This document shows positions 3,044 through 18,609 of a stretch of 64,000 nucleotides of DNA, one piece after another. A model generated the notes under the pieces. It was not told where the DNA came from and made no database searches. It saw only the letters and a program-made list of their open reading frames with translations. Source of the stretch: Ferruginibacter sp. (lineage in GTDB: Bacteria; Bacteroidota; Bacteroidia; Chitinophagales; Chitinophagaceae); the NCBI GenBank assembly GCA_035317105.1, contig DATHHR010000149.1, positions 172 to 64,171 on the forward strand. The letters are read 5' to 3'. Made by a program: the position numbers and the translations under genes. The first letter of the stretch is position 1, and each line of letters starts with the position of its first letter.

Positions 3044-3074
3044 AAGCATGAATTTCTTTTCGAAATCCATGCTT
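3044..3074. terminator. Hairpin between convergent genes
   Basis: aagcatgaattt / aaatccatgctt, a 12-bp stem with one mismatch, lying between the stops at 3043 (+) and 3096 (-). Confidence 0.5.
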
Positions 3075-3095
3075 TGAAAATAGGGAGGATCAAAA

Positions 3096-3266: not shown

Positions 3267-3490
3267 ATAGATTCATTTTAGTTATCAGGTATACTACAAA
3301 ACTGTTACCAATCATTTTCTAGTGCAAACATTGATACCGGTGGGAAAAAATCGCTTCTTATAAAACTTCTGTGTGGAAGTTTCTCTACGAAACATATTGC
3401 CAGATCAGCCATGGACCTATGCTGGCAACTATGGTATTATTTTTGAAAATACAGAGATAACCGAATTAATTAGTTTATAAAATTCCAATT

Positions 3491-3835: not shown

Positions 3836-3901
3836 GAGGTATCAAGTAGGAAGTATCAGGTATAAAGTAGCAAGATAAAATACAAGATAGATACGGGACA
3901 C

Positions 3902-3933
3902 AAAAAAGCAGATCAAAATGATCTGCTTTTTTT
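3902..3933. terminator. Bidirectional rho-independent terminator
   Basis: A-tract, then the 8-bp perfect stem agcagatc/gatctgct, then a T-tract. Lies between convergent genes. Confidence 0.7.
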
Positions 3934-3971
3934 ATTAGATAATAGCGTGAGTGTTAAATCTTGCTACTTTT

Positions 3972-5393
3972 TTATTGCGATTCCTCGTAATTTTTTATCT
4001 TATTATATAATGTCTTACGGTCTATTTTCAATAGCTCTGCAGCTTTTGTTTTATTAAAATTCACTTCTTTCAGCACGTTCATGATAGCTTCGTATTCTGC
4101 TTTTGAGGCAGTATCCTTAAGGTCTACTGTTGCATCTTTTGGTGCGGCAGCAGTTCCTGCTGTTTTTTGCGGCTCATACGCTGCTTCTGCCGTGGCATTA
4201 GTGATCTCCCACGGTAAGGTAGCTGTAGATATCTTACCGGAATCTGTAAGCAATACAGAGCGCCTTACAACATTTCTAAATTCACGTAAGTTGCCCGGCC
4301 ATGAATAGTTAATGAACATATCCATTATCTCATCTTCAAAACCATCTAAGCTTTTATTGAGTTCATTTTGTGTTCTGCTTAAAAAGAATTCGGCAAAAAG
4401 TGGGATATCGTTCTTTCTTTGTCTTAATGGTGGCAGGTTAATAGAGAATTCATTAAAACGGTGGTATAGATCTTCCCTGAATTTTCCTTTACGGTAAGCT
4501 TCCTGTAAGTTTTCATTAGAGGCTACAATGATGCGTACATCAACATCCATTTCTTTTACGCCGCCAACTCTTTTGAATTTTCTTTCCTGTATCACGCGTA
4601 ATAAAGATGCCTGGATCTCGGCAGATAAATTGGCTACTTCATCTAAAAACAAAGTACCGCCATTGGCTAATTCAAAATGGCCCTCTTTATCTGTCAATGC
4701 GCCGGTGAATGAACCCTTCATGTGACCGAATAATTCGCTGCCAGCCAGTTCTTTTGATAAAGTACCGCAGTCCATTGCAATAAAAGGCTTATTGCTCCTG
4801 CTGCTTTTTTCATGTATTGTTTTGGCAATAACTTCTTTACCTGTTCCGCTTTCGCCGTATAAAATAATACTGAAATTAGTAGGGGCAACAATATCGATCT
4901 GCTTATACAATTCTTTGGTAGCACCAGCGGTACCCACCATAAATTCATTATTAACAGCTGATCTTGATTCTTTTGTTTTTGAAGATGATTGCCCTGTTTC
5001 TTTTAACGAGGCAGCTGTTGCAGAAGGAATATTATTAAGCGCTTTGCTTAAAACATTTAATACTTCATCAGGGATCAGTGGCTTGGTGATATAATCGTAT
5101 GCACCTAATTTGATCACATCTACTGCAGTTTTAATATCCGAATACCCGGTAATGATCAAAACAATGGTTTGGGGATTAATGCTTTTGATCTCCAATAAAA
5201 TATCCTTGCCATCTTTTTTATCGCCTAAACGGAAATCACATAATACCGCATCAAATTTTTGATCTTTGAATTTTTCTATGCCTTTTGTACCTGAATGGGC
5301 CGTATCTACTTCGTAGCCATTCTTAGTAAGAAAACGATCCAATAATACGCACATATCAGCATCATCGTCAATTACTAAAATTCTCTTCTTCAT
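3972..5393 (-). CDS. NtrC-type sigma-54-dependent response regulator (receiver + AAA+ + Fis HTH), intact
   Basis: 473 aa. Contains a receiver (ILVIDDD, CDFRLGD), Walker A GESGTGKE, the GAFTGA-type loop GSFTGA, Walker B LFLDEV, RVGG, FREDLYHRF and a C-terminal Fis-type HTH (DRKTLYNKI). Confidence 0.95.
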   Translation of the reverse strand: MKKRILVIDDDADMCVLLDRFLTKNGYEVDTAHSGTKGIEKFKDQKFDAVLCDFRLGDKKDGKDILLEIKSINPQTIVLIITGYSDIKTAVDVIKLGAYDYITKPLIPDEVLNVLSKALNNIPSATAASLKETGQSSSKTKESRSAVNNEFMVGTAGATKELYKQIDIVAPTNFSIILYGESGTGKEVIAKTIHEKSSRSNKPFIAMDCGTLSKELAGSELFGHMKGSFTGALTDKEGHFELANGGTLFLDEVANLSAEIQASLLRVIQERKFKRVGGVKEMDVDVRIIVASNENLQEAYRKGKFREDLYHRFNEFSINLPPLRQRKNDIPLFAEFFLSRTQNELNKSLDGFEDEIMDMFINYSWPGNLREFRNVVRRSVLLTDSGKISTATLPWEITNATAEAAYEPQKTAGTAAAPKDATVDLKDTASKAEYEAIMNVLKEVNFNKTKAAELLKIDRKTLYNKIKNYEESQ

Positions 5394-5805
5394 ATTCTAT
5401 TTTGTTTTACTAAAGATACAACTTAGTTTTTTGACCCTTTAGTTTGAGGACACTACATACCCTAATTCACCTGTAGTATATTTAATTCCAAGGGTTTATT
5501 ACTTACTGTTGTTTGTGTTAAGGTTAAGATTGAGTAATATTCTATACACTAATGAAATATCTTGCCAAACACGTATTTTCAATAAATTTAGCTGTTACAC
5601 CATTAATTTTTTTAAAAAAAAGTAAAATTTTGTAGTAAAATTTACTCAAAATGGGTAATATCGTACTCGGATAGCATCTTAGTCTTAACGATATTAGGCA
5701 TTAATCTTCGACATTGTTGGCTTATTACAAAAAAATAAATGTTTTTGATAATTGGAAAGAAAATTGTGATAAGCAGTTGGAACTAATATAAATACTTTAA
5801 TAATA

Positions 5806-6162
5806 ATGTCAAACGTGTTAATTATAGATGATGAAATAGATATATGTTATCTGTTAAGTGGTATTTTGAAACACAAGAATTTACATCCCAATTATGTTAA
5901 TTCATTATCAGCCGCAGTCGATGCTTTAAAAAAACAGCGACCTTCAATAATTTTTTTAGATAATCATTTACCCGATGGAATGGGAATGGATTTTATAGAA
6001 TACATAAAAAAACATTCACCCTCAACTAAAATAATCATGATAACAGCCTACGATACTTCTGCCGATAGAAGCAAAGCATTAGAATTAGGCGTTGATGGGT
6101 TTATAGGTAAGCCTTTTACCAGAGAGATCATTTACCAGACAGTTGAGCAGGTAACCAGTTAA
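5806..6162 (+). CDS. Stand-alone response-regulator receiver domain
   Basis: 118 aa with VLIIDDE and FLDNHLPDGMG. Paralogous to 3491..3835. Confidence 0.85.
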   Translation: MSNVLIIDDEIDICYLLSGILKHKNLHPNYVNSLSAAVDALKKQRPSIIFLDNHLPDGMGMDFIEYIKKHSPSTKIIMITAYDTSADRSKALELGVDGFIGKPFTREIIYQTVEQVTS

Positions 6163-6334
6163 TATCCCCTTTTTGTAGAGCATTCTCCCCGCTTTTATGT
6201 TTCTCCTTATTTTTATAATTATAACGACGAAGTAAAACCATTGCTATTACTGTGTTTTAAAGAAATGAAATAGTTGGCAAAGTTTTTAAAGTATATGTTA
6301 TACATTTTATTATTTAACCTTAAAACATTATTTT

Positions 6335-6487
6335 ATGGGAAATTTACTTTATGTTATAGCAGTGATCTTAATAATAGCCTGGGCTATTGGTTTCTTAGGC
6401 TATCATGCCGGCGGCGTGATACATATTTTGTTGATCATCGCGATCATCGCAATATTATTAAGAGTGATACGCGGTGGAACTGTTTAA
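6335..6487 (+). CDS. lmo0937-family small membrane protein, 50 aa; below the ORF-track cutoff
   Basis: Hand translation gives MGNLLYVIAVILIIAWAIGFLGYHAGGVIHILLIIAIIAILLRVIRGGTV, which matches the family pattern. It replaces the implausible 87-aa ORF at 6274..6537. Confidence 0.8.
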   Translation: MGNLLYVIAVILIIAWAIGFLGYHAGGVIHILLIIAIIAILLRVIRGGTV

Positions 6488-6512
6488 ACTTTTTTAATCC
6501 AAAAATTATTTT

Positions 6513-6704
6513 ATGGAAAGCTGGAAACTACAATTGAATGGTAGTTGGAATGATACCAAAGGGAAAATTAAAAAACAATACGCCCAACTTACAGATGACG
6601 ACCTGTTGTATGAAGAGGGCGATGACGATCAGTTGCTTGGTAGATTACAGAAGAAATTAGGCAAAACAAAGCAGGAATTAAAAGATTGGATCGAAAGGTT
6701 ATAA
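6513..6704 (+). CDS. CsbD-family general stress protein
   Basis: 63 aa with KGKIKKQYAQLTDDDL ... GRLQKKLGKTKQE, typical of CsbD. Confidence 0.85.
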   Translation: MESWKLQLNGSWNDTKGKIKKQYAQLTDDDLLYEEGDDDQLLGRLQKKLGKTKQELKDWIERL

Positions 6705-6778
6705 TTCCAATTAGAATAATTATTTTGCAGGTATGCCCTTCATCAACAGGTGAGGGGCATTCTTCTAAAAAAGAAAAT

Positions 6779-7885
6779 ATGGAAAATCAATTACCCTATT
6801 ACATACGCTTGTGCGCAAAATTGTTGCTGCTTTTTTTAATAGGTTGGATAGCTAATATAGGGAAGAGCATTATTGTGCCTGTCTATTTTTCTATATTACT
6901 GGCTATCTTATTATTGCCTTTGGCCAACGCCATTGAAAGATTGAAGATACCAAAAGCAATCGCAGACCTTACATCCGTACTACTTGCAGTAGGCGTAATT
7001 GCAGTGCTCATCTATTTTCTATCTACACAGATATCTTCTTTCGTAGGCGATATGCCATCTATAAGAAGGCATTTGTCTGAACATTATTATGCACTAAGAG
7101 ATTGGGTCAATAGCCAATTAAATATCAGCTTTACGCAGCAAACGGTATTCATCCACAATACAACAAAACAAATAACCAGCTCTGGCGGAAGCTATGTAGG
7201 ACAAACATTTTCTTCCTTAACGGAAACATTTATCACCATGGTGATAGTGACAATATTTACTTTTCTTATATTATTTTACAGGCATTTAATAAGGCAATTC
7301 CTGCTGGCTGTTTTTAGAAAAGAACATGTTAGTAAAGTAGAAGAAGTATTGCAGGAATCAAAAAGCATGGTAAAGCATTATATGCTTGGCCTTTTAACAG
7401 AGATGGCGATCATTGCGACTGTTAATTCAATTATTTTACTTTGCCTGGGTATTAAGTACGCTATATTCCTGGGTGTTTTCATTGCTATTTTAAATGTTGT
7501 TCCTTACATCGGTATCATAACGGGGATCTTATTTACAGTTTTGGTCACGCTTACAACATCGTCTAATTCGCATGACATTATTTGGATAATTATTGCCATA
7601 GGGATAGTGCACATGGTCGATAGCAATGTATTAATGCCAAGGATAGTAGGTTCTAGAGTAAAGATAAATGCATTACTGGCTATAACGGGCGTATTGGTAG
7701 GTGGAAGTATCATGGGAATTGCAGGCATATTTTTAGCATTGCCCACATTAGCCATTCTTAAAATAATATTTGACAGGGTAGAAGGGCTGGAGCCCTGGGG
7801 GTTATTACTTGGAGATGAATTTTATGCCGGGAAAAAAAGTAAGATCAAAAAAAATAAACCCGGTACCGAAGAGTCTGATAATTAG
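6779..7885 (+). CDS. AI-2E (PerM/UPF0118) family transporter
   Basis: Multi-TM protein with the C-terminal signature VDSNVLMPRIVGSRVKINALL...GIFLALP. The start is moved to the ATG at 6779 (MENQLPYY) because the ORF-track start overlaps csbD. Confidence 0.85.
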   Translation: MENQLPYYIRLCAKLLLLFLIGWIANIGKSIIVPVYFSILLAILLLPLANAIERLKIPKAIADLTSVLLAVGVIAVLIYFLSTQISSFVGDMPSIRRHLSEHYYALRDWVNSQLNISFTQQTVFIHNTTKQITSSGGSYVGQTFSSLTETFITMVIVTIFTFLILFYRHLIRQFLLAVFRKEHVSKVEEVLQESKSMVKHYMLGLLTEMAIIATVNSIILLCLGIKYAIFLGVFIAILNVVPYIGIITGILFTVLVTLTTSSNSHDIIWIIIAIGIVHMVDSNVLMPRIVGSRVKINALLAITGVLVGGSIMGIAGIFLALPTLAILKIIFDRVEGLEPWGLLLGDEFYAGKKSKIKKNKPGTEESDN

Positions 7886-9315
7886 TTATTAAAAACTGTT
7901 GTAACAAAATCAAATTTGATCATAAATGTAGTGCCTTGTCCGGGCTTGCTATCTACACTGATTATGCCTTTGTGGTTTAAAATAATGTTTTGGGTATTGG
8001 CTAATCCTAAACCGTTACCTTTTGTTTTAGTAGTGAAATAAGGTTCAAATAATTTACTTACAGCAACTGTATCCATACCTACTCCGTTATCATGTATTTC
8101 AACTATACATTTACCATTTTCTCCACGGGTAACGATCTTTAATACGCCTTTATCAGGTTCCATAGCCTCGATCGCATTGACGATGATATTGAGAAAAGCA
8201 ATTTTTATTTTATTGATATCTACAGCAATATCACACATACTATCGCTGTAATTTTTTTCTATGCGTACACGATTCAATTCTATCCTGTCTTTTGCCAGCT
8301 CCAATGCTTCATCCAATAAAATATTTATAGAAACATTTTCAAAAGTAAGGTCTAAAAATCTTGTTGTATTCAATAGCTCTGTTATCAACTGATTGATACG
8401 TTTACTATTGCGGTTGATCATGTCAAATAGCATTGTAGAATTTTCATCAGGGTTACTGAGATCTGTTTTTAACTGACTAACGGCCAGGTCTATGTTAGTT
8501 AAAGGGTTACGCACTTCATGCGCTATCGTGCGGGCAATTCTTCCTGTGGCAGCAAATTTTTCTGTGTGCCTCATTTGCAGCAATTCCTTATTGGCTACGC
8601 CGAGCTCCTCAATTCTGTTCCTCAGTTCGTCCTGGTATTCGGTAACCTTTTTATCGGCAGTTTTGCGTGCTTTGTTTTCCCTGATATAAGTTATAAATCC
8701 AAAGATGGCGAATAAAAATGCCAATATCAAAGAGGTGACAATGATGATATTCATGGTCACATATCCTGCATGGAGTTCTTTGTTTCTTGCGGCAAACTGC
8801 TCCTGCTCTTTCGTTTTCATCAATCCGATCACGTAGCGGATACTGTCCATTAGCACTTTTCCTTGCGTGTTGCTTTTCCAGGTGCTGTCTTCCAGGCTGA
8901 TCTTATCTATTTTAACACGGTTGATCCCGGCTTGTAATCGATCATACTTCTGATCGATCAGGCTTTTAGCCGTGTATAATAATATCTGTTGTGATGTATT
9001 ATCTTTTGTATCAGCTTCTAATAGGTAAAAAGTGTTGTTGACATTTTTTCTGCTGCCATAATATGGAGCTAAATAACTTTCATCTCTCATTATTATGTAT
9101 CCTCTCACACTTGTTTCGGCATCTTTTACATACGATGCCAGATCTTCCATATGCGTGATAGTAGTATTACTATGCGTAACCAATTTTGATTGGGAGATCA
9201 ATTCCTGATTAGCATACCAGGTAAGTAAATATGAAACCAGTAATAGCAAAAAAGCAGCTCCATAGCCAACTTTAATGCGGTAATCTAATCGTAATTGCTT
9301 TAAGATATTGATCAT
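7882..9315 (-). CDS. CHASE3-domain sensor histidine kinase
   Basis: 477 aa. An N-terminal TM plus CHASE3-like region (ETSVRGYIIMRDESYLAPYY) is followed by a second TM, the H-box IAHEVRNPL and an HATPase_c domain (DNGVGM, GNGLGL). Confidence 0.9.
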   Translation of the reverse strand: MINILKQLRLDYRIKVGYGAAFLLLLVSYLLTWYANQELISQSKLVTHSNTTITHMEDLASYVKDAETSVRGYIIMRDESYLAPYYGSRKNVNNTFYLLEADTKDNTSQQILLYTAKSLIDQKYDRLQAGINRVKIDKISLEDSTWKSNTQGKVLMDSIRYVIGLMKTKEQEQFAARNKELHAGYVTMNIIIVTSLILAFLFAIFGFITYIRENKARKTADKKVTEYQDELRNRIEELGVANKELLQMRHTEKFAATGRIARTIAHEVRNPLTNIDLAVSQLKTDLSNPDENSTMLFDMINRNSKRINQLITELLNTTRFLDLTFENVSINILLDEALELAKDRIELNRVRIEKNYSDSMCDIAVDINKIKIAFLNIIVNAIEAMEPDKGVLKIVTRGENGKCIVEIHDNGVGMDTVAVSKLFEPYFTTKTKGNGLGLANTQNIILNHKGIISVDSKPGQGTTFMIKFDFVTTVFNN

Positions 9316-9489
9316 AATATACTAGCGTCCGGTTTTAGTTTGGGGAATTTAATTCTCAAAAGTAGTAACTCTATTAACTATAATACATAAAAACCAAGCC
9401 AAATTATAGTGGTATAGATATTGTCTTTCCCTAATGAAAGATAAACTATTAAAGAATTTGAATTTCAAATGTAAGAAATAATACTACTT

Positions 9490-10293
9490 ATGGAGCCACA
9501 GGATATCAGTGCCAATAGCGAAATAACACAATCTGCCATTGGCAACTATTTAAAGGAGGCTTTTAAAAGTGTTGGTGAGATCACACAATTTGGTGTTCGC
9601 TTTTTTAAAGAATTATTGCTGCCTCCTTATGAATTTAAAGCATTTTTTATTCAGTGCTATAAAATAGGAAACAAATCTTTGCCCTTAGTAGCTATAACCG
9701 GCTTTATAATGGGGCTGGTACTTACTTTGCAGGCAAGGCCGACCTTAGCAGAATTTGGAGCAGAATCCTGGTTGCCGGGCATGGTAGCTTTATCATTAAT
9801 AAGAGAAATTGCGCCGGTAATAACGGCGTTGATATCTGCAGGAAAAATAGGCTCGGGGATAGGTGCAGAATTGGGGTCGATGAAAGTAACCGAACAGATC
9901 GATGCGATGGAAGTTTCTGCGATCAATCCTTTTAAATATTTGGTGGTCACAAGAATTTTAGCCACCACTTTAATGATCCCGCTATTGGTATTTTTTGCAG
10001 ATGGCATTGGAATGCTGGGCGCTTATGTAGGCGTTAATATACACAACCATGTTACACTTATCAGGTTCTTTCACCAGGCAATATCAAAAATTAATTTCAT
10101 TGACATTATTCCTGCAACGATCAAATCGGTATTCTTCGGTTTCTTTATCGGCCTTATCGGTTGTTACAATGGATATACTGCAGATAACGGAACAGAAAGC
10201 GTAGGCAAGGCCGCCAATACTGCGGTAGTAATGGCTTCGCTCACCATATTTATAATTGATATGCTGGCAGTACAAATTATTGATCTTTTATAA
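9490..10293 (+). CDS. mlaE: MlaE-family ABC transporter permease
   Basis: 267 aa with REIAPVITALISAGKIGSGIGAELGSMKVTEQIDAME, the MlaE/Ttg2B signature. Confidence 0.9.
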   Translation: MEPQDISANSEITQSAIGNYLKEAFKSVGEITQFGVRFFKELLLPPYEFKAFFIQCYKIGNKSLPLVAITGFIMGLVLTLQARPTLAEFGAESWLPGMVALSLIREIAPVITALISAGKIGSGIGAELGSMKVTEQIDAMEVSAINPFKYLVVTRILATTLMIPLLVFFADGIGMLGAYVGVNIHNHVTLIRFFHQAISKINFIDIIPATIKSVFFGFFIGLIGCYNGYTADNGTESVGKAANTAVVMASLTIFIIDMLAVQIIDLL

Positions 10294-10301
10294 TATACAC
10301 T

Positions 10302-11087
10302 ATGCAAGTACAAGAATTACCCATACCCATCGCAACTGATAGTGGACTGATCAAAGATGTTATTCAGATCAAAAACCTGCATAAAACTTTTACAGACCGT
10401 GAGCATGAAGTATTAAAAGGAGTGAACCTTACTGTTGCAAAAGGTGAGAATGTTGTAGTGCTGGGAAAATCGGGAACAGGGAAATCGGTGTTGATCAAAT
10501 GTATTGTAGGACTGATGGCCATTGATGAAGGTGAAATAAATGTATTTGGAAAAAATATCAGTGAGCTAAGTGAGAAAGAATTGAACGATGTACGGGTTAA
10601 AATGGGTTTTCTTTTTCAAAGCGCTGCTTTATATGATTCTATGACAGTAAGAGAAAACCTGAATTTTCCATTGCGGCGATCACTAAAACATCTTTCTGCA
10701 AAAGAAAAAGAAGAAAGGATATTGGAGCAATTACATAATGTGGGATTAGAAAGCGCTATTGATAAAATGCCTTCGGCATTATCAGGAGGTATGCGGAAAA
10801 GAATAGGCCTTGCAAGAACACTTATTTTAAAACCTGAAATAATGTTGTATGATGAGCCAACCACCGGTCTTGATACGATCACTTCAAAAGAAATAAGCGA
10901 GCTGATATTATCAGTCCAGAAAAAAAATAAAACTACTTCCATCATTATTACACATGATATGGAATGCGCTAAATTAACTGCTGACAGGATAGTGATCTTG
11001 AAAGACGGATTCATAGTAGCCGAAGGAACTTATTCATCATTAGAAAACAGCCAGGACGAATGGGTGCGATCATTCTTTAATAAATAA
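10302..11087 (+). CDS. mlaF: ABC transporter ATP-binding protein (MlaF-like)
   Basis: Walker A GKSGTGKS, ABC signature LSGGMRKR and Walker B MLYDEP. Starts 8 nt after the permease gene. Confidence 0.9.
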   Translation: MQVQELPIPIATDSGLIKDVIQIKNLHKTFTDREHEVLKGVNLTVAKGENVVVLGKSGTGKSVLIKCIVGLMAIDEGEINVFGKNISELSEKELNDVRVKMGFLFQSAALYDSMTVRENLNFPLRRSLKHLSAKEKEERILEQLHNVGLESAIDKMPSALSGGMRKRIGLARTLILKPEIMLYDEPTTGLDTITSKEISELILSVQKKNKTTSIIITHDMECAKLTADRIVILKDGFIVAEGTYSSLENSQDEWVRSFFNK

Positions 11088-11090
11088 TTT

Positions 11091-11969
11091 ATGAAAAAAG
11101 ATATACATTATAAATGGAAACTCGGCATGTTCGTAACAATTGGGTTATTGATCTTTATCGTTACGATCTATTTAATAGGAACACAAAAAAATATTTTTGG
11201 ATCTACATTCAAGCTGAAAACTGTTTTCAGGAGTGTAAGTGGATTACAGGAAGGAAACAATGTACGCTTTGACGGGATAAATGTGGGTACTGTTGATAAC
11301 ATACAAATAATGGCGGATACAGCCGTACTGGTTTCAATAGTAATACAGAAAAATGTGCAGCGTTTTATCAGAAAAGATGCAACAGCTTCTATCGGTTCCG
11401 ATGGATTGATGGGTGATAAAGTATTGGTAATAGGTCCGGGTACTTTTTCTCAACCATCGGTTGAAGACAATGCTTTTTTACAATCGGAAAACCCTATGGA
11501 TATGGATGAGATCATGGGAAGTGTAAAAAGTACGGCAGATAATGCCAAATTAATTACCGATCAGCTTGCTTTGTTTACTTATAAAATGAATAACAATAAT
11601 GGCTTGTTACATAAACTGATGGGAGATGAGGGGTTTGCTGATGACCTTAAAAGTACTATGTCTAACCTACAAACAAGCTCTAACAACTTTGCGAAATTCA
11701 CTGATAAAATAAACAGCGGGCAAGGAGCGATAGGTAAATTGACTGATCCAAAATTTGCCAATAAATTAGATTCAACGCTAACAAATTTACAGACAGGTAC
11801 AAAAGGGCTTAGCGATAATATGGAAGCAGCCAAACATAATATTTTATTAAGAGGCTATTTCAAGAAAAAGAAAAAGGAAGATGAAAAACGAGACAAACAG
11901 GTACAGGATTCAATAAAAGCCGTGCAACAAAATATACAGCCAAAGGGTAAAGCCGATACGTTAAAGTAG
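11091..11969 (+). CDS. mlaD: MlaD/MCE-domain protein with a long C-terminal coiled region
   Basis: N-terminal TM, an MCE-like core (VSGLQEGNNVRFDGINVGTV) and repetitive helical LxxT/S segments. Third gene of the operon. Confidence 0.85.
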   Translation: MKKDIHYKWKLGMFVTIGLLIFIVTIYLIGTQKNIFGSTFKLKTVFRSVSGLQEGNNVRFDGINVGTVDNIQIMADTAVLVSIVIQKNVQRFIRKDATASIGSDGLMGDKVLVIGPGTFSQPSVEDNAFLQSENPMDMDEIMGSVKSTADNAKLITDQLALFTYKMNNNNGLLHKLMGDEGFADDLKSTMSNLQTSSNNFAKFTDKINSGQGAIGKLTDPKFANKLDSTLTNLQTGTKGLSDNMEAAKHNILLRGYFKKKKKEDEKRDKQVQDSIKAVQQNIQPKGKADTLK

Positions 11970-12150
11970 TAAAGGATTCAACCAGTGCTCATTAATAATT
12001 TGAGATATAAACTTCTCATTTGGGGAAAACATTGCACAGGTAAAAACCGATAAAAGGCTCTATAGCGTTGAATTTACAAAGAAAAACAGATTGGCAGCGT
12101 TTTAGATATAAACAAAGTATAACAACATTCTTAATCAAAAAAATACAATT

Positions 12151-12420
12151 ATGAAATCGCAAAAAGTTATTGCCGGTATATTAATAGGTGCTGCTGCAGG
12201 CGCAGCGTTGGGCCTTTTGTTTGCTCCATATAAAGGTTCAAAAACAAGAAGAAAATTAGCCAGTGCAGGTGCCGATCTAAAAGATTCATTACAAGAGAAG
12301 ATCGAAGATTTTGTTGAAACGATCACGGATCAGTTTCAAAGCACTAAAAAAGAATTAACGGAACTAGGCAAAGAAAAAATGGCAAGCGTTAAAGCAAATG
12401 CAAAACATGCTTTGTCTTAA
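12151..12420 (+). CDS. YtxH-domain protein
   Basis: 89 aa with IAGILIGAAAGAALGLLFAPYKGSKTRRKL, the typical YtxH N-terminus, followed by a helical tail. Confidence 0.85.
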   Translation: MKSQKVIAGILIGAAAGAALGLLFAPYKGSKTRRKLASAGADLKDSLQEKIEDFVETITDQFQSTKKELTELGKEKMASVKANAKHALS

Positions 12421-12452
12421 TTCTTTATTGCTAAAACAATACAATTGCTATA

Positions 12453-12794
12453 ATGGAAAAACAACAAAACCATATCGGCTCATTGTTCGAAAAGGCAGAA
12501 GCATATCTTGAAACAAAGATGGAGCTATATCGGCTTCATGCAATTGATAAATCAACAACTATAGTTTCGGGCATTGTCGCAAGATTAATAATCGCGTTAT
12601 TCATTGCTTCCTGCTTTTTGATGTTTAGTATCGGATTAGCGATATTAATAGGACGAAGCATGGGAGAGATGTATTATGGATTTTTTATTGTTGCGGGATT
12701 CTATCTTGTTGTTATTATTGTTTTATATGCTTCGCGTGATAAATGGCTTAAAGCACCAGTTAGTAACCTTATTATAAAAAGCATCTTTAATTAA
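12453..12794 (+). CDS. Holin-X-like (holin superfamily III type) two-TM membrane protein
   Basis: 113 aa with an amphipathic N-terminus followed by two TM helices. This is the usual partner of YtxH genes in Bacteroidota annotations. Confidence 0.7.
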   Translation: MEKQQNHIGSLFEKAEAYLETKMELYRLHAIDKSTTIVSGIVARLIIALFIASCFLMFSIGLAILIGRSMGEMYYGFFIVAGFYLVVIIVLYASRDKWLKAPVSNLIIKSIFN

Positions 12795-12800
12795 TCATAT

Positions 12801-13217
12801 ATGCAAATCCATAACAGTGCTGGTCTGAAAGCTGCCATTCATCAGTTAGAACAAAAGCAGTTCATACAAAAAGAAGCGTTGATCGATCAATTTCACGAAA
12901 CGTATGAAAGCCTTAAGCCGCTTAATATTGTTAAGAGCGAATTTAAGAAGATCACCAATTCTATAACCGGTTCTTCGGAAACTAAAGGTACTATTCTTAA
13001 AACTGCACTTGGCCTGGGTGTAGGATTTCTTACCAAGAAAATATTCTTTCGCGGACCTACTAATATTTTAAAAAGATTAATAGGAACTGCTGTAGAGGCA
13101 GGTGTTGCCAAATTGGTTGCCGTAAATGCCGATAAAATAGTAGAAAAAGGAGTGGAGCTTAAAGATAAAGGGTTAGAAATTTTACATGCTTCTTCCAGGG
13201 ACGGAAGAGTTCTATAA
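12801..13217 (+). CDS. Hypothetical protein; third gene of the YtxH/holin-X-like triad
   Basis: 138-aa ORF starting 6 nt after the previous stop. No family recognised. Confidence 0.65.
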   Translation: MQIHNSAGLKAAIHQLEQKQFIQKEALIDQFHETYESLKPLNIVKSEFKKITNSITGSSETKGTILKTALGLGVGFLTKKIFFRGPTNILKRLIGTAVEAGVAKLVAVNADKIVEKGVELKDKGLEILHASSRDGRVL

Positions 13218-13236
13218 ATCAAATTAAACATAAATT

Positions 13237-13404
13237 ATGAAAAAGACTTTATTAGCCGCGATAGTTATGTTGACAGCTTTTGCGACCATATCAAGTGGTT
13301 GTTACGAGGATCGTTATTATCACGAGCACCATCGCCATACGGATGAATATTATCACCGTCATCACCAGGCACCGCCTGCTGATGTGCAGATAGATGTTCG
13401 GTAA
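13237..13404 (+). CDS. His/Tyr-rich mini-lipoprotein, 55 aa; below the ORF-track cutoff
   Basis: Hand translation gives MKKTLLAAIVMLTAFATISSGCYEDRYYHEHHRHTDEYYHRHHQAPPADVQIDVR. It has a lipobox-like SSGC and is followed by a terminator hairpin. Confidence 0.55.
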   Translation: MKKTLLAAIVMLTAFATISSGCYEDRYYHEHHRHTDEYYHRHHQAPPADVQIDVR

Positions 13405-13426
13405 GCGAATGTTAGTCAAATTAATT

Positions 13427-13461
13427 AAGAAGCCGGGTGATTTGCCTGGCTTCTTTTATTT
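13427..13461 (+). terminator. Rho-independent terminator
   Basis: 11-bp stem aagaagccggg / cctggcttctt (one G-U pair) followed by tttatt. Confidence 0.6.
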
Positions 13462-13557
13462 AAATATTAATTTTTATTAAATAAGAGAGACCAATGGGTA
13501 TTGGCACGTTTTTGCTGCTATCAAACAAAACAATTATTCACATTAAAAACGACAATT

Positions 13558-13938
13558 ATGAAAAACGATAATTTTGAAACAACTAACATGGATGCATTTG
13601 AGGATACACGTTTTTATGCTGCGGGCAGAGAAACCGATCCTATTGTTAATGGCAACGATGATGATGAACTGAACCAGGATGATATTACGCCGGAAGATAT
13701 AGCACTACTGGACGCAACAGATTATGACAGCTCAACTGATAGCGATGATGAAGACCTGGATAATGCAGAACTGGATGACACGGATGAAGACGGCGAGGAA
13801 TTGAATGAAAAGAGCTCTGCCAGCGATTTTTCTGGCGAAGACCTGGATGTGCCAGGATCTGAAGATGATGATGAAGACGAGAATATCGGGGAAGAAGACG
13901 AAGAGAATAACAGCTACAGCGAAGCTGATACAGAATAA
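13558..13938 (+). CDS. Highly acidic, probably disordered protein
   Basis: 126 aa counted from the internal ATG (MKNDNFETT). By my count 52 of the 126 residues are D or E. Confidence 0.65.
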   Translation: MKNDNFETTNMDAFEDTRFYAAGRETDPIVNGNDDDELNQDDITPEDIALLDATDYDSSTDSDDEDLDNAELDDTDEDGEELNEKSSASDFSGEDLDVPGSEDDDEDENIGEEDEENNSYSEADTE

Positions 13939-13959
13939 GTAACTTATAAATTATTTGTT

Positions 13960-14109
13960 ATGATAAAGAAACTAAAATCCGGACAATACAGGATATACTC
14001 CATTCATAAGGATCCTAAAACGAATAAGCGAAAGAACCTGGGGACTTTCGACTCATTGGAAAAAGCTAAAAAGCACGAACAGGAAATTCAATATTTCAAA
14101 CATCATTAG
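13960..14109 (+). CDS. Basic 49-aa mini-protein; below the ORF-track cutoff
   Basis: Hand translation gives MIKKLKSGQYRIYSIHKDPKTNKRKNLGTFDSLEKAKKHEQEIQYFKHH. It starts 21 nt after the acidic gene and a strong terminator follows. Confidence 0.6.
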   Translation: MIKKLKSGQYRIYSIHKDPKTNKRKNLGTFDSLEKAKKHEQEIQYFKHH

Positions 14110-14121
14110 CATCATTTGAAT

Positions 14122-14152
14122 AAAAAACCGGCTACATATGCAGCCGGTTTTT
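14122..14152. terminator. Bidirectional terminator
   Basis: aaaaaaccggct...agccggttttt: A-tract, 8-bp stem, T-tract. Lies between convergent genes. Confidence 0.7.
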
Positions 14153-14181
14153 AAATGTCTTGTTGTATCATTTATCTTGAT

Positions 14182-14652
14182 TTAAGAGAACCTGTATGTT
14201 TTTGAATAATCATTTGCCGGCCAGAATAGCTGGCTTAAAATGTTCATTATTTTTCCATTCAGTGGTGTGGTGAATTTCTTTTCAAAATACTCCGCCTGCA
14301 TAATAGTCAGTTTAACCAAAACTACTTTTTCTTCTAATGGAGAAACAATAAGTTCGTTATCGCTTTTAACGATGGATGCTTTTCCTCCAATTCGTAAACG
14401 GCACTCACTCCCTTTTTGATAATATTCAAGGTATGCATAGAACTGTTCATTAATATTTTTTGCGTAATCATCATTAGTACATGATGTAAAGAACCAAATG
14501 TTTCCATGGTCATCGGTTTTAATTGTTGAAATAATATTATTGGGAAGTGTCAAAACAGAATCGATCTCTGCTTTGAACATGGCTATTTTTATCTCTTGTA
14601 TCTTCTTGCGAAGGAAGCCAAGGTTTTTATCTTTTGTTATCATAATTGACAT
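14182..14652 (-). CDS. Pyridoxamine-5'-phosphate-oxidase-like / general stress protein 26 family protein
   Basis: 156 aa. It shares the GNIWFF motif and overall layout with 17184..17690. Confidence 0.7.
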   Translation of the reverse strand: MSIMITKDKNLGFLRKKIQEIKIAMFKAEIDSVLTLPNNIISTIKTDDHGNIWFFTSCTNDDYAKNINEQFYAYLEYYQKGSECRLRIGGKASIVKSDNELIVSPLEEKVVLVKLTIMQAEYFEKKFTTPLNGKIMNILSQLFWPANDYSKTYRFS

Positions 14653-14784
14653 GTTTTTGATTATAGTGTATAATTCAAACCTTGTACCAATTTATAATGG
14701 GTACTTATAAAGCCTTAATGGGTGCGGTTTGTAGAGCCTGTTCCTCACTATTGTAGAAAAGAGATACGTATATGGGATATACGT

Positions 14785-14829
14785 AATAAACAAAAGAGCA
14801 GATCCGGATATCATCCAAACCTGCTCTTT
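14785..14829 (-). terminator. Terminator of the second ytxH-like gene
   Basis: On the minus strand, the 9-bp stem aaagagcag/ctgctcttt is followed by ttgtttatt. Confidence 0.5.
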
Positions 14830-14862
14830 AAAAGTGGTGTTACTAAACACTACTTCAATCTC

Positions 14863-15135
14863 TTACGAAGCATATTCTCTGTCAAATTCTTCTTTTGCAG
14901 TGGCTGTTTTTTGCCTACCAAACTCCATGGCATTTTCTTTCATTGCTTCGTAATTGCTTGTTACGGCTTCTGCTACTTTACCATAGCCTTCTTTAATAGC
15001 ATCCGTTAGTTCACTGCTTTTTTGAGCAATTTTTGCTCTTGTTTCAGATCCCTTATCCGGCGCAAATAAAACGCCCAAAATAGCGCCAGCAGCAGCGCCG
15101 GCCAATATTCCTGTAATTAATTTTCCTGTTGACAT
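14863..15135 (-). CDS. YtxH-domain protein (second copy)
   Basis: 90 aa with ITGILAGAAAGAILGVLFAPDKGSETRAKI. Confidence 0.85.
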   Translation of the reverse strand: MSTGKLITGILAGAAAGAILGVLFAPDKGSETRAKIAQKSSELTDAIKEGYGKVAEAVTSNYEAMKENAMEFGRQKTATAKEEFDREYAS

Positions 15136-15380
15136 GATGGTAGTTTTTAATGATTAACAATTGTTTCATATAAGTATTCCAAAATGCAGCCAAAGTTTAT
15201 TGAGTAGGTCTATGACCTGTAATTCTTTGCTGTAAAGAGTTTTATATGATTTGTCTTTTATGGATCAGATAAATTCCGTGGATTGTTTTCTACCATCTGA
15301 GGAATTTTAAGAACGTGTACCATACCTGTTTAATGGCATGATTATGTCATGGATACTATTTTAAACTTCAAATATTTTAT

Positions 15381-15554
15381 ATGAAAAAGCATTTAGTATT
15401 TACATCATTCATCGCTATGTTACTAACAATAGTTTTATCAGGTTGCCAGGTAATAGGAGGCATTTTTAAAGTCGGTGTCTTGAGTGGCATCGCCATCGTT
15501 GTTGCAGTGATCGCATTAATAGCCTATTTGTTAACAAGAGGAAGCAGCAATTAA
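15381..15554 (+). CDS. Small lipoprotein/membrane protein, 57 aa; below the ORF-track cutoff
   Basis: Hand translation gives MKKHLVFTSFIAMLLTIVLSGCQVIGGIFKVGVLSGIAIVVAVIALIAYLLTRGSSN, with a lipobox LSGC and a second TM helix. Confidence 0.5.
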   Translation: MKKHLVFTSFIAMLLTIVLSGCQVIGGIFKVGVLSGIAIVVAVIALIAYLLTRGSSN

Positions 15555-15696
15555 TATCCACAACGTGTTGACTAATTTCCCCATTTATGGCTATAGTTTA
15601 CAGCATTTGAAGTGGAAAATACTGGCAGGGTATTTTCGGTAATTAACTGATATATAACCCTTGATGGATGAGGGTATTACGAGAAAATTAACATTT

Positions 15697-17079
15697 ATGA
15701 AAAATAGTATTTTAGTTATAGACGATGATGTGGATATGTGTGTACTGCTAAGCAGGTTTCTTGATAGAAATGGATATGAGGTTGATACGTCTTATTCAGG
15801 AGAAGATGGTATTGCGAAATTTGAACAAGGAAAATTTGATATTGTTATCTGTGATTATCGCTTAGGCGATATGGAAGGAAAAGATGTTTTAACAGAGATC
15901 AAAGCACATAATCCAAATACCATCGTTTTGATCATCACGGGCTATTCTGATATTAAAATAGCATTAGATATTATTAAGCTGGGCGCTTATGATTATATAA
16001 CCAAGCCGCTTATACCTACAGAAGTTTTGAATGTGTTGAAATCTGCTTTAAGCAAACATGCTTCATTAAAAGTAGACAATGCGGGTGTTCTAAAAAAAGA
16101 TAACAATACGATCATTATTGAAGACGGAGAATTTTTAATTGGCAGATCAAAATTGTCTATTGAATTATTCCGGCAGATAGAAATTGTTGCTAATACAGAT
16201 TATAGCCTGATACTCTATGGAGAAAGCGGAACAGGTAAAAAAGTAACGGCAAAAGAGATACACAATAAAAGCAGGCGAAAAAAAAATACGTTCATTACAA
16301 TAGACTGCGGCAATTTATCAAAACAATTATCTGCACAAGATCTGCTGAAGTATATAGAAATGGCAAATGGCGGCACTTTATTTTTGGATGAAGTAGCTTG
16401 TCTGCCTTTCGAATTGCAAACCTACCTGCTAAAAGTTATCAAAGAAAGAAAATATATAAAGCCAGGTACAACTACTGATATACCATTAGACCTAAGGTTC
16501 ATCGTATCATCGCATGAAAACCTGCAGGAAGCATATCAGCAAGGGAGATTTATCGAAGAATTATATTATTTGTTCAACGAGTTCTCGATACATATACCGG
16601 CATTAAAAGAAAGAAAAGAAGATATTGTTCTTTTTGCCAATTTCTTTTTACAAAAAACAAGTGCGGAACTGGGTAAAAAAATTACAGGTTTTGAAAAAGG
16701 GATCCAGGAAATGTTTTACAATTATATATGGCCGGGCAATTTGCGTGAGCTCAGGAATGTGGTAAGGCGCGCAGTTCTACTATGTGTAGATAATGTTGTA
16801 ACGATTGAAACCTTGCCACAGGAAATAGTATTTATGAACGACCAATTGGAATCTTACGAATTATCCGGCGAACATAAAAAGATGGAACCGCAAATACTGC
16901 CGATGGGTAAAGATTTTAATTTGAAAGAAATGACAGCAAAAGCAGAATATGACGCTATCATGAAAGTATTAAAAGATGTAAATTTTAATAAAACAAAAGC
17001 TGCAGAGATATTGAATGTAGATCGTAAAACTTTATACAATAAGATAAGAACATATCAGAATACGATCACAGGAATTTAG
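15697..17079 (+). CDS. NtrC-family response regulator paralog with a degenerate AAA+ domain (no GAFTGA loop, arginine fingers lost)
   Basis: Its receiver and Fis HTH are very similar to 3972..5393, and Walker A (GESGTGKK) and Walker B (LFLDEV) are retained. About 15 aa spanning FGHxKGSFTGA are missing (CGNLSKQLSAQDLLKYIEMANGG). RVGG has become KPGT, and FREDLYHRF has become FIEELYYLF. Start placed at the ATG 15697 (MKNSILVIDDD). Confidence 0.9.
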   Translation: MKNSILVIDDDVDMCVLLSRFLDRNGYEVDTSYSGEDGIAKFEQGKFDIVICDYRLGDMEGKDVLTEIKAHNPNTIVLIITGYSDIKIALDIIKLGAYDYITKPLIPTEVLNVLKSALSKHASLKVDNAGVLKKDNNTIIIEDGEFLIGRSKLSIELFRQIEIVANTDYSLILYGESGTGKKVTAKEIHNKSRRKKNTFITIDCGNLSKQLSAQDLLKYIEMANGGTLFLDEVACLPFELQTYLLKVIKERKYIKPGTTTDIPLDLRFIVSSHENLQEAYQQGRFIEELYYLFNEFSIHIPALKERKEDIVLFANFFLQKTSAELGKKITGFEKGIQEMFYNYIWPGNLRELRNVVRRAVLLCVDNVVTIETLPQEIVFMNDQLESYELSGEHKKMEPQILPMGKDFNLKEMTAKAEYDAIMKVLKDVNFNKTKAAEILNVDRKTLYNKIRTYQNTITGI

Positions 17080-17084
17080 TAAAA

Positions 17085-17178
17085 GACGACCGACTACCAA
17101 CGACTGACCACCGCATCAAACTATATGATTCCACATAATTGTATGGTTTACGGTTGTCAGTCGTTGGTAGTTGGTCGT
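17085..17178. repeat. Long imperfect inverted repeat between convergent genes (REP-like / bidirectional terminator)
   Basis: Arms of about 27 nt, gacgaccgactaccaacgactgaccacc versus ggttgtcagtcgttggtagttggtcgt, separated by a loop of about 38 nt. Confidence 0.6.
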
Positions 17179-17183
17179 TATAT

Positions 17184-17690
17184 TTAAAATATGATATTTC
17201 CTTCAATACTGTCATCAGCTACTGTCTCTGTAAATGCACTAGTAAAGATCTTGAATAGGCTCACCATCTTATTATTTTTTGTATCCCAGTAATGGGCCTT
17301 TATTGGCCTCACTTTAATGATGGTCAGATCAGGATCATCCGCGCCGTTTTTAAACCAGGCTTTGGCAATAGGTGTCCACAGCCGCTGCGCCATCTCTTTA
17401 TCTATTATGATCGATGCCTGTCCGTAAACACTTAAATATTCTGCACCGCTTTTATTCGAATAAAATAACTGCACTTTATTATTGTATAAAATATCTTTAT
17501 TCTTCCCGCTGCTGCTACTGCTGAAAAACCAAATATTTCCTGCATCATCTACATCTAAAGTTCCCATTGGTCTTGTTTGCAAAGGCGCTTCATTTAAATC
17601 TGTAGTGAACATACATGTTTCAGCAGATATAACGATCTCTTTTATTTTACTTACAGCCTCTTTGTTTGATAGGTCTTTATGATCGCCCAT
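17184..17690 (-). CDS. General stress protein 26 / PNPOx-like FMN-binding family protein
   Basis: Contains TCMFTT, PMGTLDVDDAGNIWFFSS, AEYLSVYGQASII and IKVRPIKAHYWD. Start placed at the ATG 17690 (MGDHKDL). Confidence 0.85.
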   Translation of the reverse strand: MGDHKDLSNKEAVSKIKEIVISAETCMFTTDLNEAPLQTRPMGTLDVDDAGNIWFFSSSSSGKNKDILYNNKVQLFYSNKSGAEYLSVYGQASIIIDKEMAQRLWTPIAKAWFKNGADDPDLTIIKVRPIKAHYWDTKNNKMVSLFKIFTSAFTETVADDSIEGNIIF

Positions 17691-17752
17691 GACTGATATT
17701 TTTAAAATGAGAAAGCTGCTCAATAAGGAACAGCTTTCTCAACAATTTTTTA

Positions 17753-18442
17753 TTAATATAATTTAATACCTAAGGAAATACTTACTGTACGGTATTTATC
17801 TTTATCATTCTTTTCATCATCTCCCTCTTCAGAATTGATCCTTGTTAATCCAAGACCGTATTGTGCTTTTACTAACACCGGACCAAAGTCGATCCCTCCA
17901 CCCATATTAACGCCAAAATCCCAAAGCTTTAATTTATCATAAGCTGCATTTTCCTGGTCGGATGTAAAAGGATCTTCGTTATCAAATTTTATAGTATTTG
18001 TTTGTGTTGTGCCATCAAAAGAATTGACAGTTTTAGATTGTCCTGCAACACCGATAGCCGCATAAGGACCGGCAAATAAGAAAATATTTGCTTTAGTAAC
18101 TTTCGGGTCGCCTAAAGGAAATTTAACAACAGCGTTCAAAGGAACCTGAACATAATAAGGCCTTAATGTTGTAGTAATATCATTCCCTGCGAAGGTTGTT
18201 ACAGATTTTGCTCCCTGGCCAGTGAATAATGCACCCATTTCCAGGTCAAAAAAATCTGAAATTCCAAACCTTCCCATAAAGCCTGCATTGAATGAACCAA
18301 TAGCATTGCTTCTCTGCGTTTGGCCATCATCTGATGTGCTGATGTTAGCGATATTTAATCCGCCTTGCAGATAAACCTGCGCATTTGTTGTAGCAACACC
18401 AATAAAAGTTGTTGCTAATAATACTGTTAGTATCTTTTTCAT
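17753..18442 (-). CDS. Outer-membrane beta-barrel (OmpA-N/OmpW-like porin family) protein
   Basis: 229 aa with a signal peptide ending TNAQ, alternating beta-strand pattern and the terminal ISLGIKLY. Confidence 0.8.
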   Translation of the reverse strand: MKKILTVLLATTFIGVATTNAQVYLQGGLNIANISTSDDGQTQRSNAIGSFNAGFMGRFGISDFFDLEMGALFTGQGAKSVTTFAGNDITTTLRPYYVQVPLNAVVKFPLGDPKVTKANIFLFAGPYAAIGVAGQSKTVNSFDGTTQTNTIKFDNEDPFTSDQENAAYDKLKLWDFGVNMGGGIDFGPVLVKAQYGLGLTRINSEEGDDEKNDKDKYRTVSISLGIKLY

Positions 18443-18520
18443 CGTAATTCTTTTTAAGTTTTTAGTGTAATTAATAAGCCATACTCCTTCATTGAAATAT
18501 GTCCCTCACAATACTTATTA

Positions 18521-18558
18521 AAACAAAAAGCCTGCCACTGGAATATAGTAGCAGGCTT
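18521..18558 (-). terminator. Terminator of the glucan synthase gene
   Basis: On the minus strand, the stem aagcctgctact/agtggcaggctt is followed by tttttgtttt. Confidence 0.6.
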
Positions 18559-18609
18559 GTATAATTTTCGTAGAATATGCTCTACGTAACTTTCAACATT
18601 GGTATAATC

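Follow-up and report, generated by a model that had tools for sequence, protein, structure and literature searches.

An NtrC-type response regulator that lacks sequence features for sigma-54 contact and ATP hydrolysis is conserved in a stress-gene island of Ferruginibacter

In bacterial enhancer-binding proteins (bEBPs), the GAFTGA motif touches region I of sigma-54, and an arginine finger (R-finger) works in trans on the gamma-phosphate (PMC7175178; PMC3162934). The trans-acting arginine finger is R299 in NtrC1, and the equivalent residue in PspF is R168 (PMC7175178). Several bEBP homologues are known in which GAFTGA is absent or defective, namely TyrR, DhaR, HupR, PhhR, HsfA, NtrX, VpsR, and the NtrC proteins of Rhodobacter and Caulobacter. 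Here, we describe a gene at positions 15697..17079 of a 64,000-nucleotide (nt) stretch of contig DATHHR010000149.1 from Ferruginibacter sp. (the window), which encodes a bEBP-like response regulator. As judged from its sequence, the protein belongs to this atypical class by the defining feature, i.e., homology to bEBPs and absence of GAFTGA. Rhodobacter capsulatus NtrC and HupR had been named as GAFTGA-less precedents in an earlier note on this DNA, in agreement with the literature. The scores obtained with the NCBIfam models, compared with the cut-offs, were 244/600 bits for NtrX, 130/576 bits for TyrR, and 174/551 bits for DhaR, and thus, the protein is a member of none of these named families.

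The gene and its product are referred to as the dead gene and the dead protein. The following features were assigned, all on the + strand:
15697..17079, +: bEBP-like response regulator of 460 amino acids (aa), sigma-54-blind and ATPase-dead by sequence
15709..16035, +: receiver domain (Pfam Response_reg, 92 bits), phospho-acceptor pocket kept
16138..16605, +: AAA+ core, fold kept, catalytic and sigma-54-contact residues lost
16219..16242, +: Walker A GESGTGKK, P-loop kept, GTGKE changed to GTGKK (the Glu is invariant in intact relatives)
16339..16365, +: deletion junction DLLKYI/EMA, 15 residues with the L1 hairpin and GAFTGA gone
16369..16392, +: Walker B GGTLFLDE, DE in the window copy
16453..16470, +: L2 remnant YIKPGT replacing FKRVGG, sequence and length variable among orthologues
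16501..16521, +: sensor-I region IVSSHEN, ASNEN changed to SSHEN (the Asn that is invariant in intact relatives is His in all eight dead sequences)
16549..16575, +: former R-finger helix FIEELYYLF replacing FREDLYHRF, both Arg changed to aliphatic residues
16732..16758, +: sensor-II motif PGNLRELRN, kept
16813..16881, +: segment LPQEIVFMNDQLESYELSGEHKK (LPQEIVFMNxQLxSYELSGEHKK) of 23 residues between the lid and the helix-turn-helix (HTH) domain, newly constrained (invariant or nearly so in the dead clade, variable in the intact relatives)
16942..17055, +: Fis-type HTH_8 domain (Pfam, 39 bits), recognition helix DRKTLYNKI at 17020-17046

An in-frame TTG is present upstream at 15661; the ATG at 15697 fits the N-terminus of all homologues, and the TTG is unlikely to be the start of the gene. 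Pfam recognized Response_reg, Sigma54_activat, AAA_lid_14, and HTH_8 in the product. The match to Sigma54_activat (PF00158) scored 128 bits (cut-off 20.2) and was broken in two stretches, whereas the two intact bEBPs of the window scored 218 bits (3972..5393) and 227 bits (43946..45193). A comparison with this model had been proposed as a check.

Comparison with the product of the intact gene at 3972..5393 revealed the extent of the losses. The two proteins are 55% identical in BLASTP with a single gap of 15 residues, which removes MKGSFTGALTDKEGH, and the identical gap was found in a MAFFT alignment and in the alignment to NtrC1 of Aquifex. The earlier note had listed a deletion of about 15 residues including GAFTGA at nt 16330-16365, within which the junction falls, the replacement of RVGG by KPGT, and the change of FREDLYHRF to FIEELYYLF with loss of both arginines. 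Every point turned out to be correct, but the list was incomplete, because the change of Asn to His in sensor I and of Glu to Lys in Walker A had not been included. With R293/R299 of NtrC1 and R162/R168 of PspF as the arginine-finger reference, the corresponding residues of the window protein are I286 and L292, the latter being the counterpart of NtrC1 R299 and PspF R168. Across the orthologues, position 286 is I or L, and position 292 is L or I.

A search of 5.8 billion proteins yielded seven further representatives of 90%-identity clusters that are 81–90% identical to the dead protein, while the next match falls to 59%. The representatives, one of which is labelled Ferruginibacter sp. by NCBI, are encoded on Ferruginibacter-like metagenome contigs. 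All eight cluster representatives have the L1 deletion, lack both arginines, and carry the Asn-to-His and Glu-to-Lys changes. Because identical lesions occur in eight independent representatives, chance or assembly error is ruled out. The lost motifs are kept by all 214 intact relatives examined, and G[AS]FTGA and FREDLYHRFN are retained in each of the 113 intact top matches. In addition, 33 positions that are at least 95% conserved in the 214 intact relatives are altered in all eight dead sequences, and 27 of these are located in the AAA+ core. Walker B is not uniform in the dead clade: DE is present in three of the eight sequences (the window protein and two orthologues), EE in four, and EG in one. 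This variation, together with that of L2, indicates relaxed selection on catalysis and would fit an ATP site whose catalytic function is no longer selected. According to the established mechanism of bEBPs, the absence of L1 with GAFTGA, of L2, of sensor I, and of both arginines would uncouple ATP hydrolysis from remodelling of the sigma-54 holoenzyme. On this basis, we infer with good reason that the dead protein would be unable to contact sigma-54 or to hydrolyse ATP.

The two terminal domains present a different picture. The pocket residues D9-D11, D53, and K103 of the receiver are invariant in the homologue alignment, and T81 is nearly so. The identity of the receiver to that of the intact paralog, estimated earlier at roughly three-quarters, was measured to be 74.6%, and the recognition helix DRKTLYNKI is identical in the two proteins, as had been stated. 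The proposal of the earlier note that phosphorylation and DNA binding are kept while remodelling of sigma-54 is lost can be regarded as soundly argued, in view of the lesions, the invariant pocket, and the near-invariant HTH. Its additional assumption of shared enhancers did not hold up in the same way. The recognition helix is invariant in all 222 aligned sequences of the family, and therefore, its identity is no specific evidence that the two paralogs share enhancers.

The selection acting on the dead gene was quantified with six coding sequences, at which synonymous sites are saturated (dS >1.7 or undefined). The ratio of nonsynonymous to synonymous substitution rates (dN/dS) in the dead clade was about 0.045 overall, and by region it was 0.034 for the receiver, 0.069 for AAA+, 0.054 for the lid, 0.056 for the second linker, and 0.004 for the HTH. 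The reading frame is open in all eight representatives. The dead gene is thus maintained by purifying selection. The ranking of the domains is inverted, as the ratio of AAA+ to receiver distances is 3.0 in pairs of dead proteins versus 0.41 in pairs of intact proteins. Moreover, 36 positions are invariant in the dead clade and variable in the intact relatives, and 20 of these are clustered within residues 365-414. The protein had previously been called degenerate. This overstates the decay, given the low dN/dS and the new conserved segment of 23 residues.

An AlphaFold2 model of the dead protein had a mean predicted local distance difference test (pLDDT) score of 84.6 and retained the AAA+ fold. 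In the model, helix 213-223 continues straight into the Walker-B strand, and the L1 hairpin is thus cleanly excised. A helix was predicted at residues 375-389, inside the newly constrained stretch. The modelled AAA+ domain superposes at about 2.2 Å on LuxO, ZraR, NtrC1, and FleQ, and the top full-length match was NtrX.

Next, the origin of the dead gene was analyzed. The window contains a complete family member 10 kb from the dead gene:
3972..5393, −: intact A-type paralog (GSFTGA, FREDLYHRF) with a divergent receiver (REC) partner at 5806..6162

The dead gene is no derivative of this neighbour. In neighbour-joining (NJ) bootstraps the dead clade was never attached to the A-type cluster that holds the intact gene of the window. 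With all columns, it was attached to P0025 in 53%, to C2 plus C3 in 26%, and to the B-type group in 14% of the replicates; without the AAA+ core columns, it grouped with B and/or P0025 in 87%. A midpoint-rooted NJ tree had placed the dead clade as sister to everything, which was treated as a long-branch artefact and replaced by the bootstrap attachment tests. The intact bEBPs of the B and P0025 types (P0026 of F. paludis, P0009, and P0025) are 58–61% identical to the dead protein. Between the two window proteins, the AAA+ domains share only 55.5% identity, versus 79% between intact paralog groups.

The chromosomal position is in agreement with this assignment. The site of the dead gene is held by a single intact bEBP in F. 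paludis (L003) and in the metagenome-assembled genomes L005 and L090. In all three, the intact gene lies 3′ of a YtxH-like gene and has a divergent REC partner; a small open reading frame (ORF) and a gene of the GH94 family flank it in L003 and L005, and a CHASE3 kinase is present in L005 and L090. Sequence, position, and a shared upstream box (see below) together indicate that the dead gene is, as far as sequences can tell, a lineage-specific descendant of the B-type bEBP that relatives carry at the corresponding chromosomal site, and not a recent copy of its neighbour.

The co-occurrence of a dead and an intact gene was found in one other checkable lineage, in which P0128, a 90% orthologue of the intact window gene, and P0005 are encoded in a 58.7-kb contig family in the same order. 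REC118 of the window shares 72% identity with the REC partner of an A-type gene (L007) and 56% with the B-type partners. At the DNA level, the HTH regions of the two window paralogs (3992..4105 and 16937..17050) are 86% identical over 114 nt. The proportion of synonymous differences (pS) in the HTH is 0.48 between the window paralogs versus 0.69-0.74 for dead orthologues of other contigs against the window A-type gene, and 22 of 31 HTH codons are identical versus 15-17 of 31. Gene conversion in this region was considered, but the difference was judged too small to claim it. A third bEBP of the window (43946..45193, −) has 415 aa, no receiver, an intact GSFTGA, a lid, and HTH_8, and is located between a MiaB-like radical-SAM gene (45291..46718) and LptE (43378..43962).

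The intergenic regions of the surrounding island were inspected for regulatory elements. Alignment of orthologous intergenic DNA revealed invariant TGG(C/T)A-N6-T(T/A/G)(G/T/A) boxes 37-95 nt 5′ of gene starts, within DNA that is otherwise variable. They precede at least 10 genes or operons (REC114, DUF5670, MlaE, kinase, YtxH89, the 145-aa gene, PNPOx153, YtxH90, small ORF, dead gene, and OMP, an outer membrane protein). The elements closest to the dead gene and its neighbours are:
15623..15638, +: −24/−12-like box TGGCAGGGTATTTTCG, 74 nt 5′ of the ATG of the dead gene, conserved
15289..15304, +: dyad-like element TCTACCATCTGAGGAA in the divergent intergenic region of YtxH90 and the small ORF, also in the intact-only loci L003 and L005
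15177..15192, −: sigma-54-like box TGGCTGCATTTTGGAA 5′ of YtxH90 (14863..15135), also in L003, L005, L007, L090, and L091
14741..14757, −: second copy of the dyad-like element, TCTACAATAGTGAGGAA, about 55 nt 5′ of the box at 14674..14689
14674..14689, −: sigma-54-like box TGGTACAAGGTTTGAA 5′ of the PNPOx-like gene 14182..14652, invariant in five lineages
18522..18537, −: sigma-54-like box TGGCAGGCTTTTTGTT 5′ of the OMP gene, with the dyad CGTAGA-N6-TCTACG further 5′

The enrichment of these boxes was visible only when the search was made with TGGYA-N6-TTG and limited to the intergenic DNA of the island. Under these conditions, six sites were found in 2,889 nt versus 0.14 expected, a number not attained in any of 5000 shuffles; the coding DNA of the island (24 kb) contained the motif once. 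A search of the whole window with the canonical TGGCACN5TTGC, allowing two mismatches, showed no enrichment (42 matches versus 53 expected). The box TGGCAGGATATTTTC (TGGCAGGrTATTTwC), about 55 nt 5′ of the start, is common to the dead genes and the intact B-type genes at L003 and L005, and it also occurs 5′ of the independently dead gene of L091. More generally, boxes are present in genomes with an intact local bEBP (L003, L005, L090, and L007), in the dead lineage, and in L091. Bacteroidetes sigma-A has the −7 motif TAnnTTTG. The boxes were also considered as such −7 elements, which was rejected because, as judged by eye, only one of 13 fits the motif.

Conserved dyad-like elements are located 50-90 nt 5′ of the boxes (TTCTAC-N3-5-TGAGGAA, CGTAGA-N6-TCTACG, and TTCTCA-N2-TGGGGAA), and they persist in the dead lineage as well as in lineages that have an intact bEBP only. 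Since the spacing varies, the strict 20-nt motif TTTTCTACN5TGAGGAA retrieved one site only, whereas a search for the TTCTAC/TGAGGAA dyad with flexible spacing found it in all related loci. On sequence grounds, the combination of a box and an upstream dyad is the classical layout of promoter plus enhancer. Two further sites deserve mention. The box TGGCAAGATATTTCAT at 5552..5567 (−), 174 nt 5′ of the intact A-type gene, closely resembles the box TGGCAGGATATTT of the dead and B-type genes. The only perfect TGGCAC-N5-TTGC of the window is found at 47343..47357 (−), about 90 nt 5′ of a 125-aa ORF (46876..47253) without a Pfam match; it is likely to be a canonical sigma-54 promoter, in contrast to the deviant −12 elements of the island.

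Within the limits of each contig, four related contigs share the gene order of the island with the window. It starts with TamB, Omp85, a 707-aa protein, a 161-aa protein, and REC114, followed by the intact A-type bEBP (−), REC118, DUF5670, CsbD, and an AI-2E transporter. The middle part consists of the CHASE3 kinase (−), MlaEFD, YtxH, a holin-like gene, and several small genes. Thereafter come a PNPOx-like gene (−), YtxH90 (−), and a 57-aa membrane ORF (+), and the island ends with the dead bEBP (+), a PNPOx-like gene and OMP (both −), and a 2910-aa GH94 cyclic-glucan synthase (−). The island has four receivers, and in addition to a 1541-aa PAS kinase, one further kinase was noted, which is a candidate partner of the dead protein:
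7882..9315, −: CHASE3 histidine kinase, 40–45% identical to the kinases beside the intact B-type and P0025 genes

This kinase is a candidate for the cognate kinase of the dead protein. A contig scan anchored on it did not retrieve an orthologous locus; the back-translated patterns turned out to be generic kinase motifs, and the best match was 44% identical. The gene content of window positions 2500..18600 is reminiscent of general stress genes (CsbD, DUF5670, two YtxH, PNPOx-like/GSP26, holin-X-like, AI-2E transporter, MlaEFD, and OMP, adjoined by GH94), and islands of this kind were seen in the window and at L001, L004, L006, L088, L003, L005, L090, and L091. Almost all of the genes or operons in the island have a conserved TGGYA-N6-T(T/A/G)(G/T/A) box with a dyad further 5′. 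The small ORF of 57-58 aa (MKK...LSGCQ...; lipoprotein- or membrane-like, no Pfam match) is located directly 5′ of the bEBP in the dead lineage and in intact-only lineages (window 15381..15554, +; L003 9087..9263; L005 about 7719..7889). Between the convergent dead bEBP and PNPOx genes, an inverted repeat (17086..17113 / 17151..17178; 28 nt, 93% complementary, 37-nt spacer) probably forms a bidirectional terminator.

Dead forms are not restricted to the studied clade. A profile-free HMMER search of 1.84 billion representatives revealed about 17 further proteins without a GAFTGA-like L1 among the best 150, and most of these also lack one or both arginines. Examples are P0223, P0229, P0233, P0246, P0250, P0256, P0267, P0269, P0297, P0342, and P0364, several of which have about 380-400 aa and no HTH. 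P0223 has an L1 of full length, which is scrambled, and its nearest intact group is C2. P0229 (L091, 10001..11143) shares the 15-residue deletion, is devoid of both the arginines and the HTH, and is nearest to the A-type; its gene lies in an island of this type, which has the boxes as well, and an intact bEBP is absent within 10 kb. Both proteins are singletons. By sequence, there have seemingly been at least three independent degenerations in the bEBP family of Chitinophagaceae, i.e., the studied clade (from the B-type), P0223 (C2), and P0229 (A-type), and this recurrence suggests that dead forms are a repeatable outcome rather than an accident.

What could such a protein do? A built-in competitor, a poisoning subunit, and a sigma-70-type regulator had been suggested in the earlier note, and each of these is conceivable. 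Probably, it is either a DNA-bound brake or a sigma-54-independent regulator in the stress-gene island. We tentatively favour a DNA-binding protein, controlled by phosphorylation, whose occupancy of the island dyads modulates activation by intact family members, a possibility to which we would assign somewhat less than an even chance. The CHASE3 kinase of the island would phosphorylate the dead protein, the phosphorylated form would bind to the dyads 5′ of the island's sigma-54-type promoters, including those flanking its own gene, and its occupancy would damp or time the activation by the intact paralog or paralogs, without any activation by the dead protein itself. Several observations weigh against this proposal. 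We infer the sigma-54 assignment of the island boxes from their sequences, and their −12 parts deviate from TTGC; the box 5′ of the dead gene has no G where one is usual, at −13. The family-wide invariance of the recognition helix does not allow target sites to be assigned to the dead protein rather than to its paralogs. Furthermore, purifying selection still acts on AAA+, and Walker A has been retained; by analogy to Rhodobacter NtrC, nucleotide binding or oligomerisation may still matter. The helix modelled at 375-389 suggests a new partner contact, which could be RNA polymerase and would favour a regulator of the sigma-70 type. Lastly, at L091, no bEBP other than the HTH-less and independently dead relative is located within 10 kb of the same type of island, and thus, an adjacent intact partner is no general requirement. 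In an extended version that we consider unlikely, the dead protein would be a phosphorylation-gated decoy that sits on the enhancers of the stress island or becomes part of the intact paralog's rings and thereby sets an activation threshold or a shut-off timer, a solution that would have arisen repeatedly in the family. We know of no description of a natural dominant-negative paralog among bEBPs, and a literature search for an atypical EBP of Bacteroidota or a dead-paralog antagonist of a bEBP yielded nothing relevant.

Alternatively, the dead protein could be a sigma-54-independent regulator working with sigma-A, which has its own regulon, activates or represses directly, and uses the new helix to contact RNA polymerase or another partner. 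All characterized GAFTGA-less bEBPs work at sigma-70-type promoters, NtrX, itself an atypical EBP, ranks first among the full-length structural matches, and residues 365-397 are newly constrained around the modelled helix. Moreover, Walker A has been retained, which is also the case in Rhodobacter NtrC, where ATP must be bound but need not be hydrolysed. Nevertheless, we regard this as somewhat unlikely, since the cis-elements around the gene are of the −24/−12 type and unchanged from genomes with an intact orthologue, only one of the 13 boxes fits the sigma-A motif, and no candidate sigma-A target was found. A third possibility is that the dead protein co-assembles with the intact paralog via AAA+ and, having neither R-finger nor sensor I, poisons hydrolysis in trans or tethers active subunits to DNA. 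The conserved and confidently modelled AAA+ scaffold and lid, the replacement of both arginines by conserved aliphatic residues at the inter-subunit face, and the presence of the pair 10 kb apart would be compatible with mixed rings, and HrpR/HrpS provide a precedent for a hetero-oligomeric bEBP pair; the HTH-less dead P0229 can act only via protein contacts or its receiver. However, the low identity of the two AAA+ domains in the window, compared with that between intact groups, and the fact that AAA+ is the fastest-evolving folded domain of the dead clade are contrary to a maintained hetero-interface, and a pure poison would leave the extreme conservation of the HTH unexplained, so that this is quite improbable.

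Two further explanations were considered. The receiver might drain phosphoryl groups from the CHASE3 kinase, with the remaining protein being of little importance. Its strong conservation and the presence of two single-domain receivers in the island would be in line with such a phosphate sink, but the HTH is even more conserved than the receiver, and the lid, AAA+, and the new helix are also under purifying selection, which makes this very improbable. That the gene is a non-functional relic heading for loss is hardly credible. The catalytic motifs are gone, Walker B and L2 are still drifting, and the clade is narrow, with eight clusters at 90% identity; yet neutral decay is not supported, because the frame has stayed open in all eight representatives despite saturated synonymous sites and dN/dS is 0.045, and the upstream box is conserved as well.

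Whichever role the dead protein has, the locus offers a clean natural experiment, with intact orthologues in sister genomes at the same site, with the same box and surrounded by the same −24/−12-type promoters. Because these orthologues and elements are available, the conversion of an activator can be reconstructed stepwise: the clade as a whole has the excised L1, the two missing arginines, and the altered sensor I, while Walker B and L2 are still drifting, and a conserved helix has been gained. The gene is thus an evolutionary snapshot and at the same time a candidate for a built-in antagonist in a sigma-54 stress regulon. If the intact paralog is indeed antagonized, this would represent a built-in brake on a sigma-54 stress regulon in soil Bacteroidota. 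The findings also concern annotation. The dead orthologues P0005 and P0007 are labelled "sigma-54 dependent transcriptional regulator" or "two-component system response regulator HydG" by NCBI and JGI; in the absence of GAFTGA and R-fingers from their sequences, these names are very probably wrong, and such naming inflates the counts of sigma-54 activators.

The closest described relatives are the intact bEBPs of the B and P0025 types. They share with the dead protein the order of REC, AAA+, lid, and HTH_8, the position between the 707-aa gene, YtxH, or the small ORF and GH94, the box TGGCAGGATATTTTC at P0026 and P0009 (not at P0025), and a CHASE3 kinase near P0009 and P0025. In contrast to it, they have not lost GAFTGA, RVGG, the Asn of sensor I, or either arginine, and they have a divergent REC partner, which the dead gene lacks. 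The NtrC proteins of Rhodobacter capsulatus and Caulobacter resemble the dead protein in having REC-AAA+-HTH, an L1 deletion that removes GAFTGA, and a retained aspartyl phosphorylation site. Both are alphaproteobacterial, and the deletion in Caulobacter NtrC comprises eight residues, compared with 15 in the dead protein. Rhodobacter NtrC is reported or predicted to need ATP binding, and Caulobacter NtrC binding and hydrolysis, whereas the dead protein lacks the R-fingers, sensor I, and the Walker-A Glu.

VpsR of Vibrio cholerae, which acts independently of sigma-54, is likewise devoid of GAFTGA, and its hydrolysis residues deviate from the consensus (ND replaces DE in Walker B). VpsR is 26% identical to the dead protein in the structural alignment, and the residue-level comparison with VpsR and NtrX follows the literature descriptions. 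Unlike the dead gene, with its surroundings of the −24/−12 type, VpsR is a sigma-70 activator that depends on cyclic di-GMP and has targets without −24/−12 elements. A defective or absent GAFTGA is also found in Brucella NtrX, E. coli TyrR and DhaR, Rhodobacter HupR, Pseudomonas PhhR, and Myxococcus HsfA, which regulate sigma-70 promoters; in contrast to families of the NtrX, TyrR, and DhaR type, the nearest relatives of the dead protein are intact sigma-54 activators. HrpR and HrpS of Pseudomonas syringae are similar in that two paralogous bEBPs are encoded in one locus, and they act jointly on the same regulon; both are described as cooperative sigma-54 activators, however, whereas one partner in the window is catalytically dead by sequence. 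Taken together, the dead protein seems, on the sequence evidence, to be set apart from the other members of the atypical class by the completeness of its catalytic loss, its close intact orthologues, its setting in a regulon of the −24/−12 type, and the gained helix.

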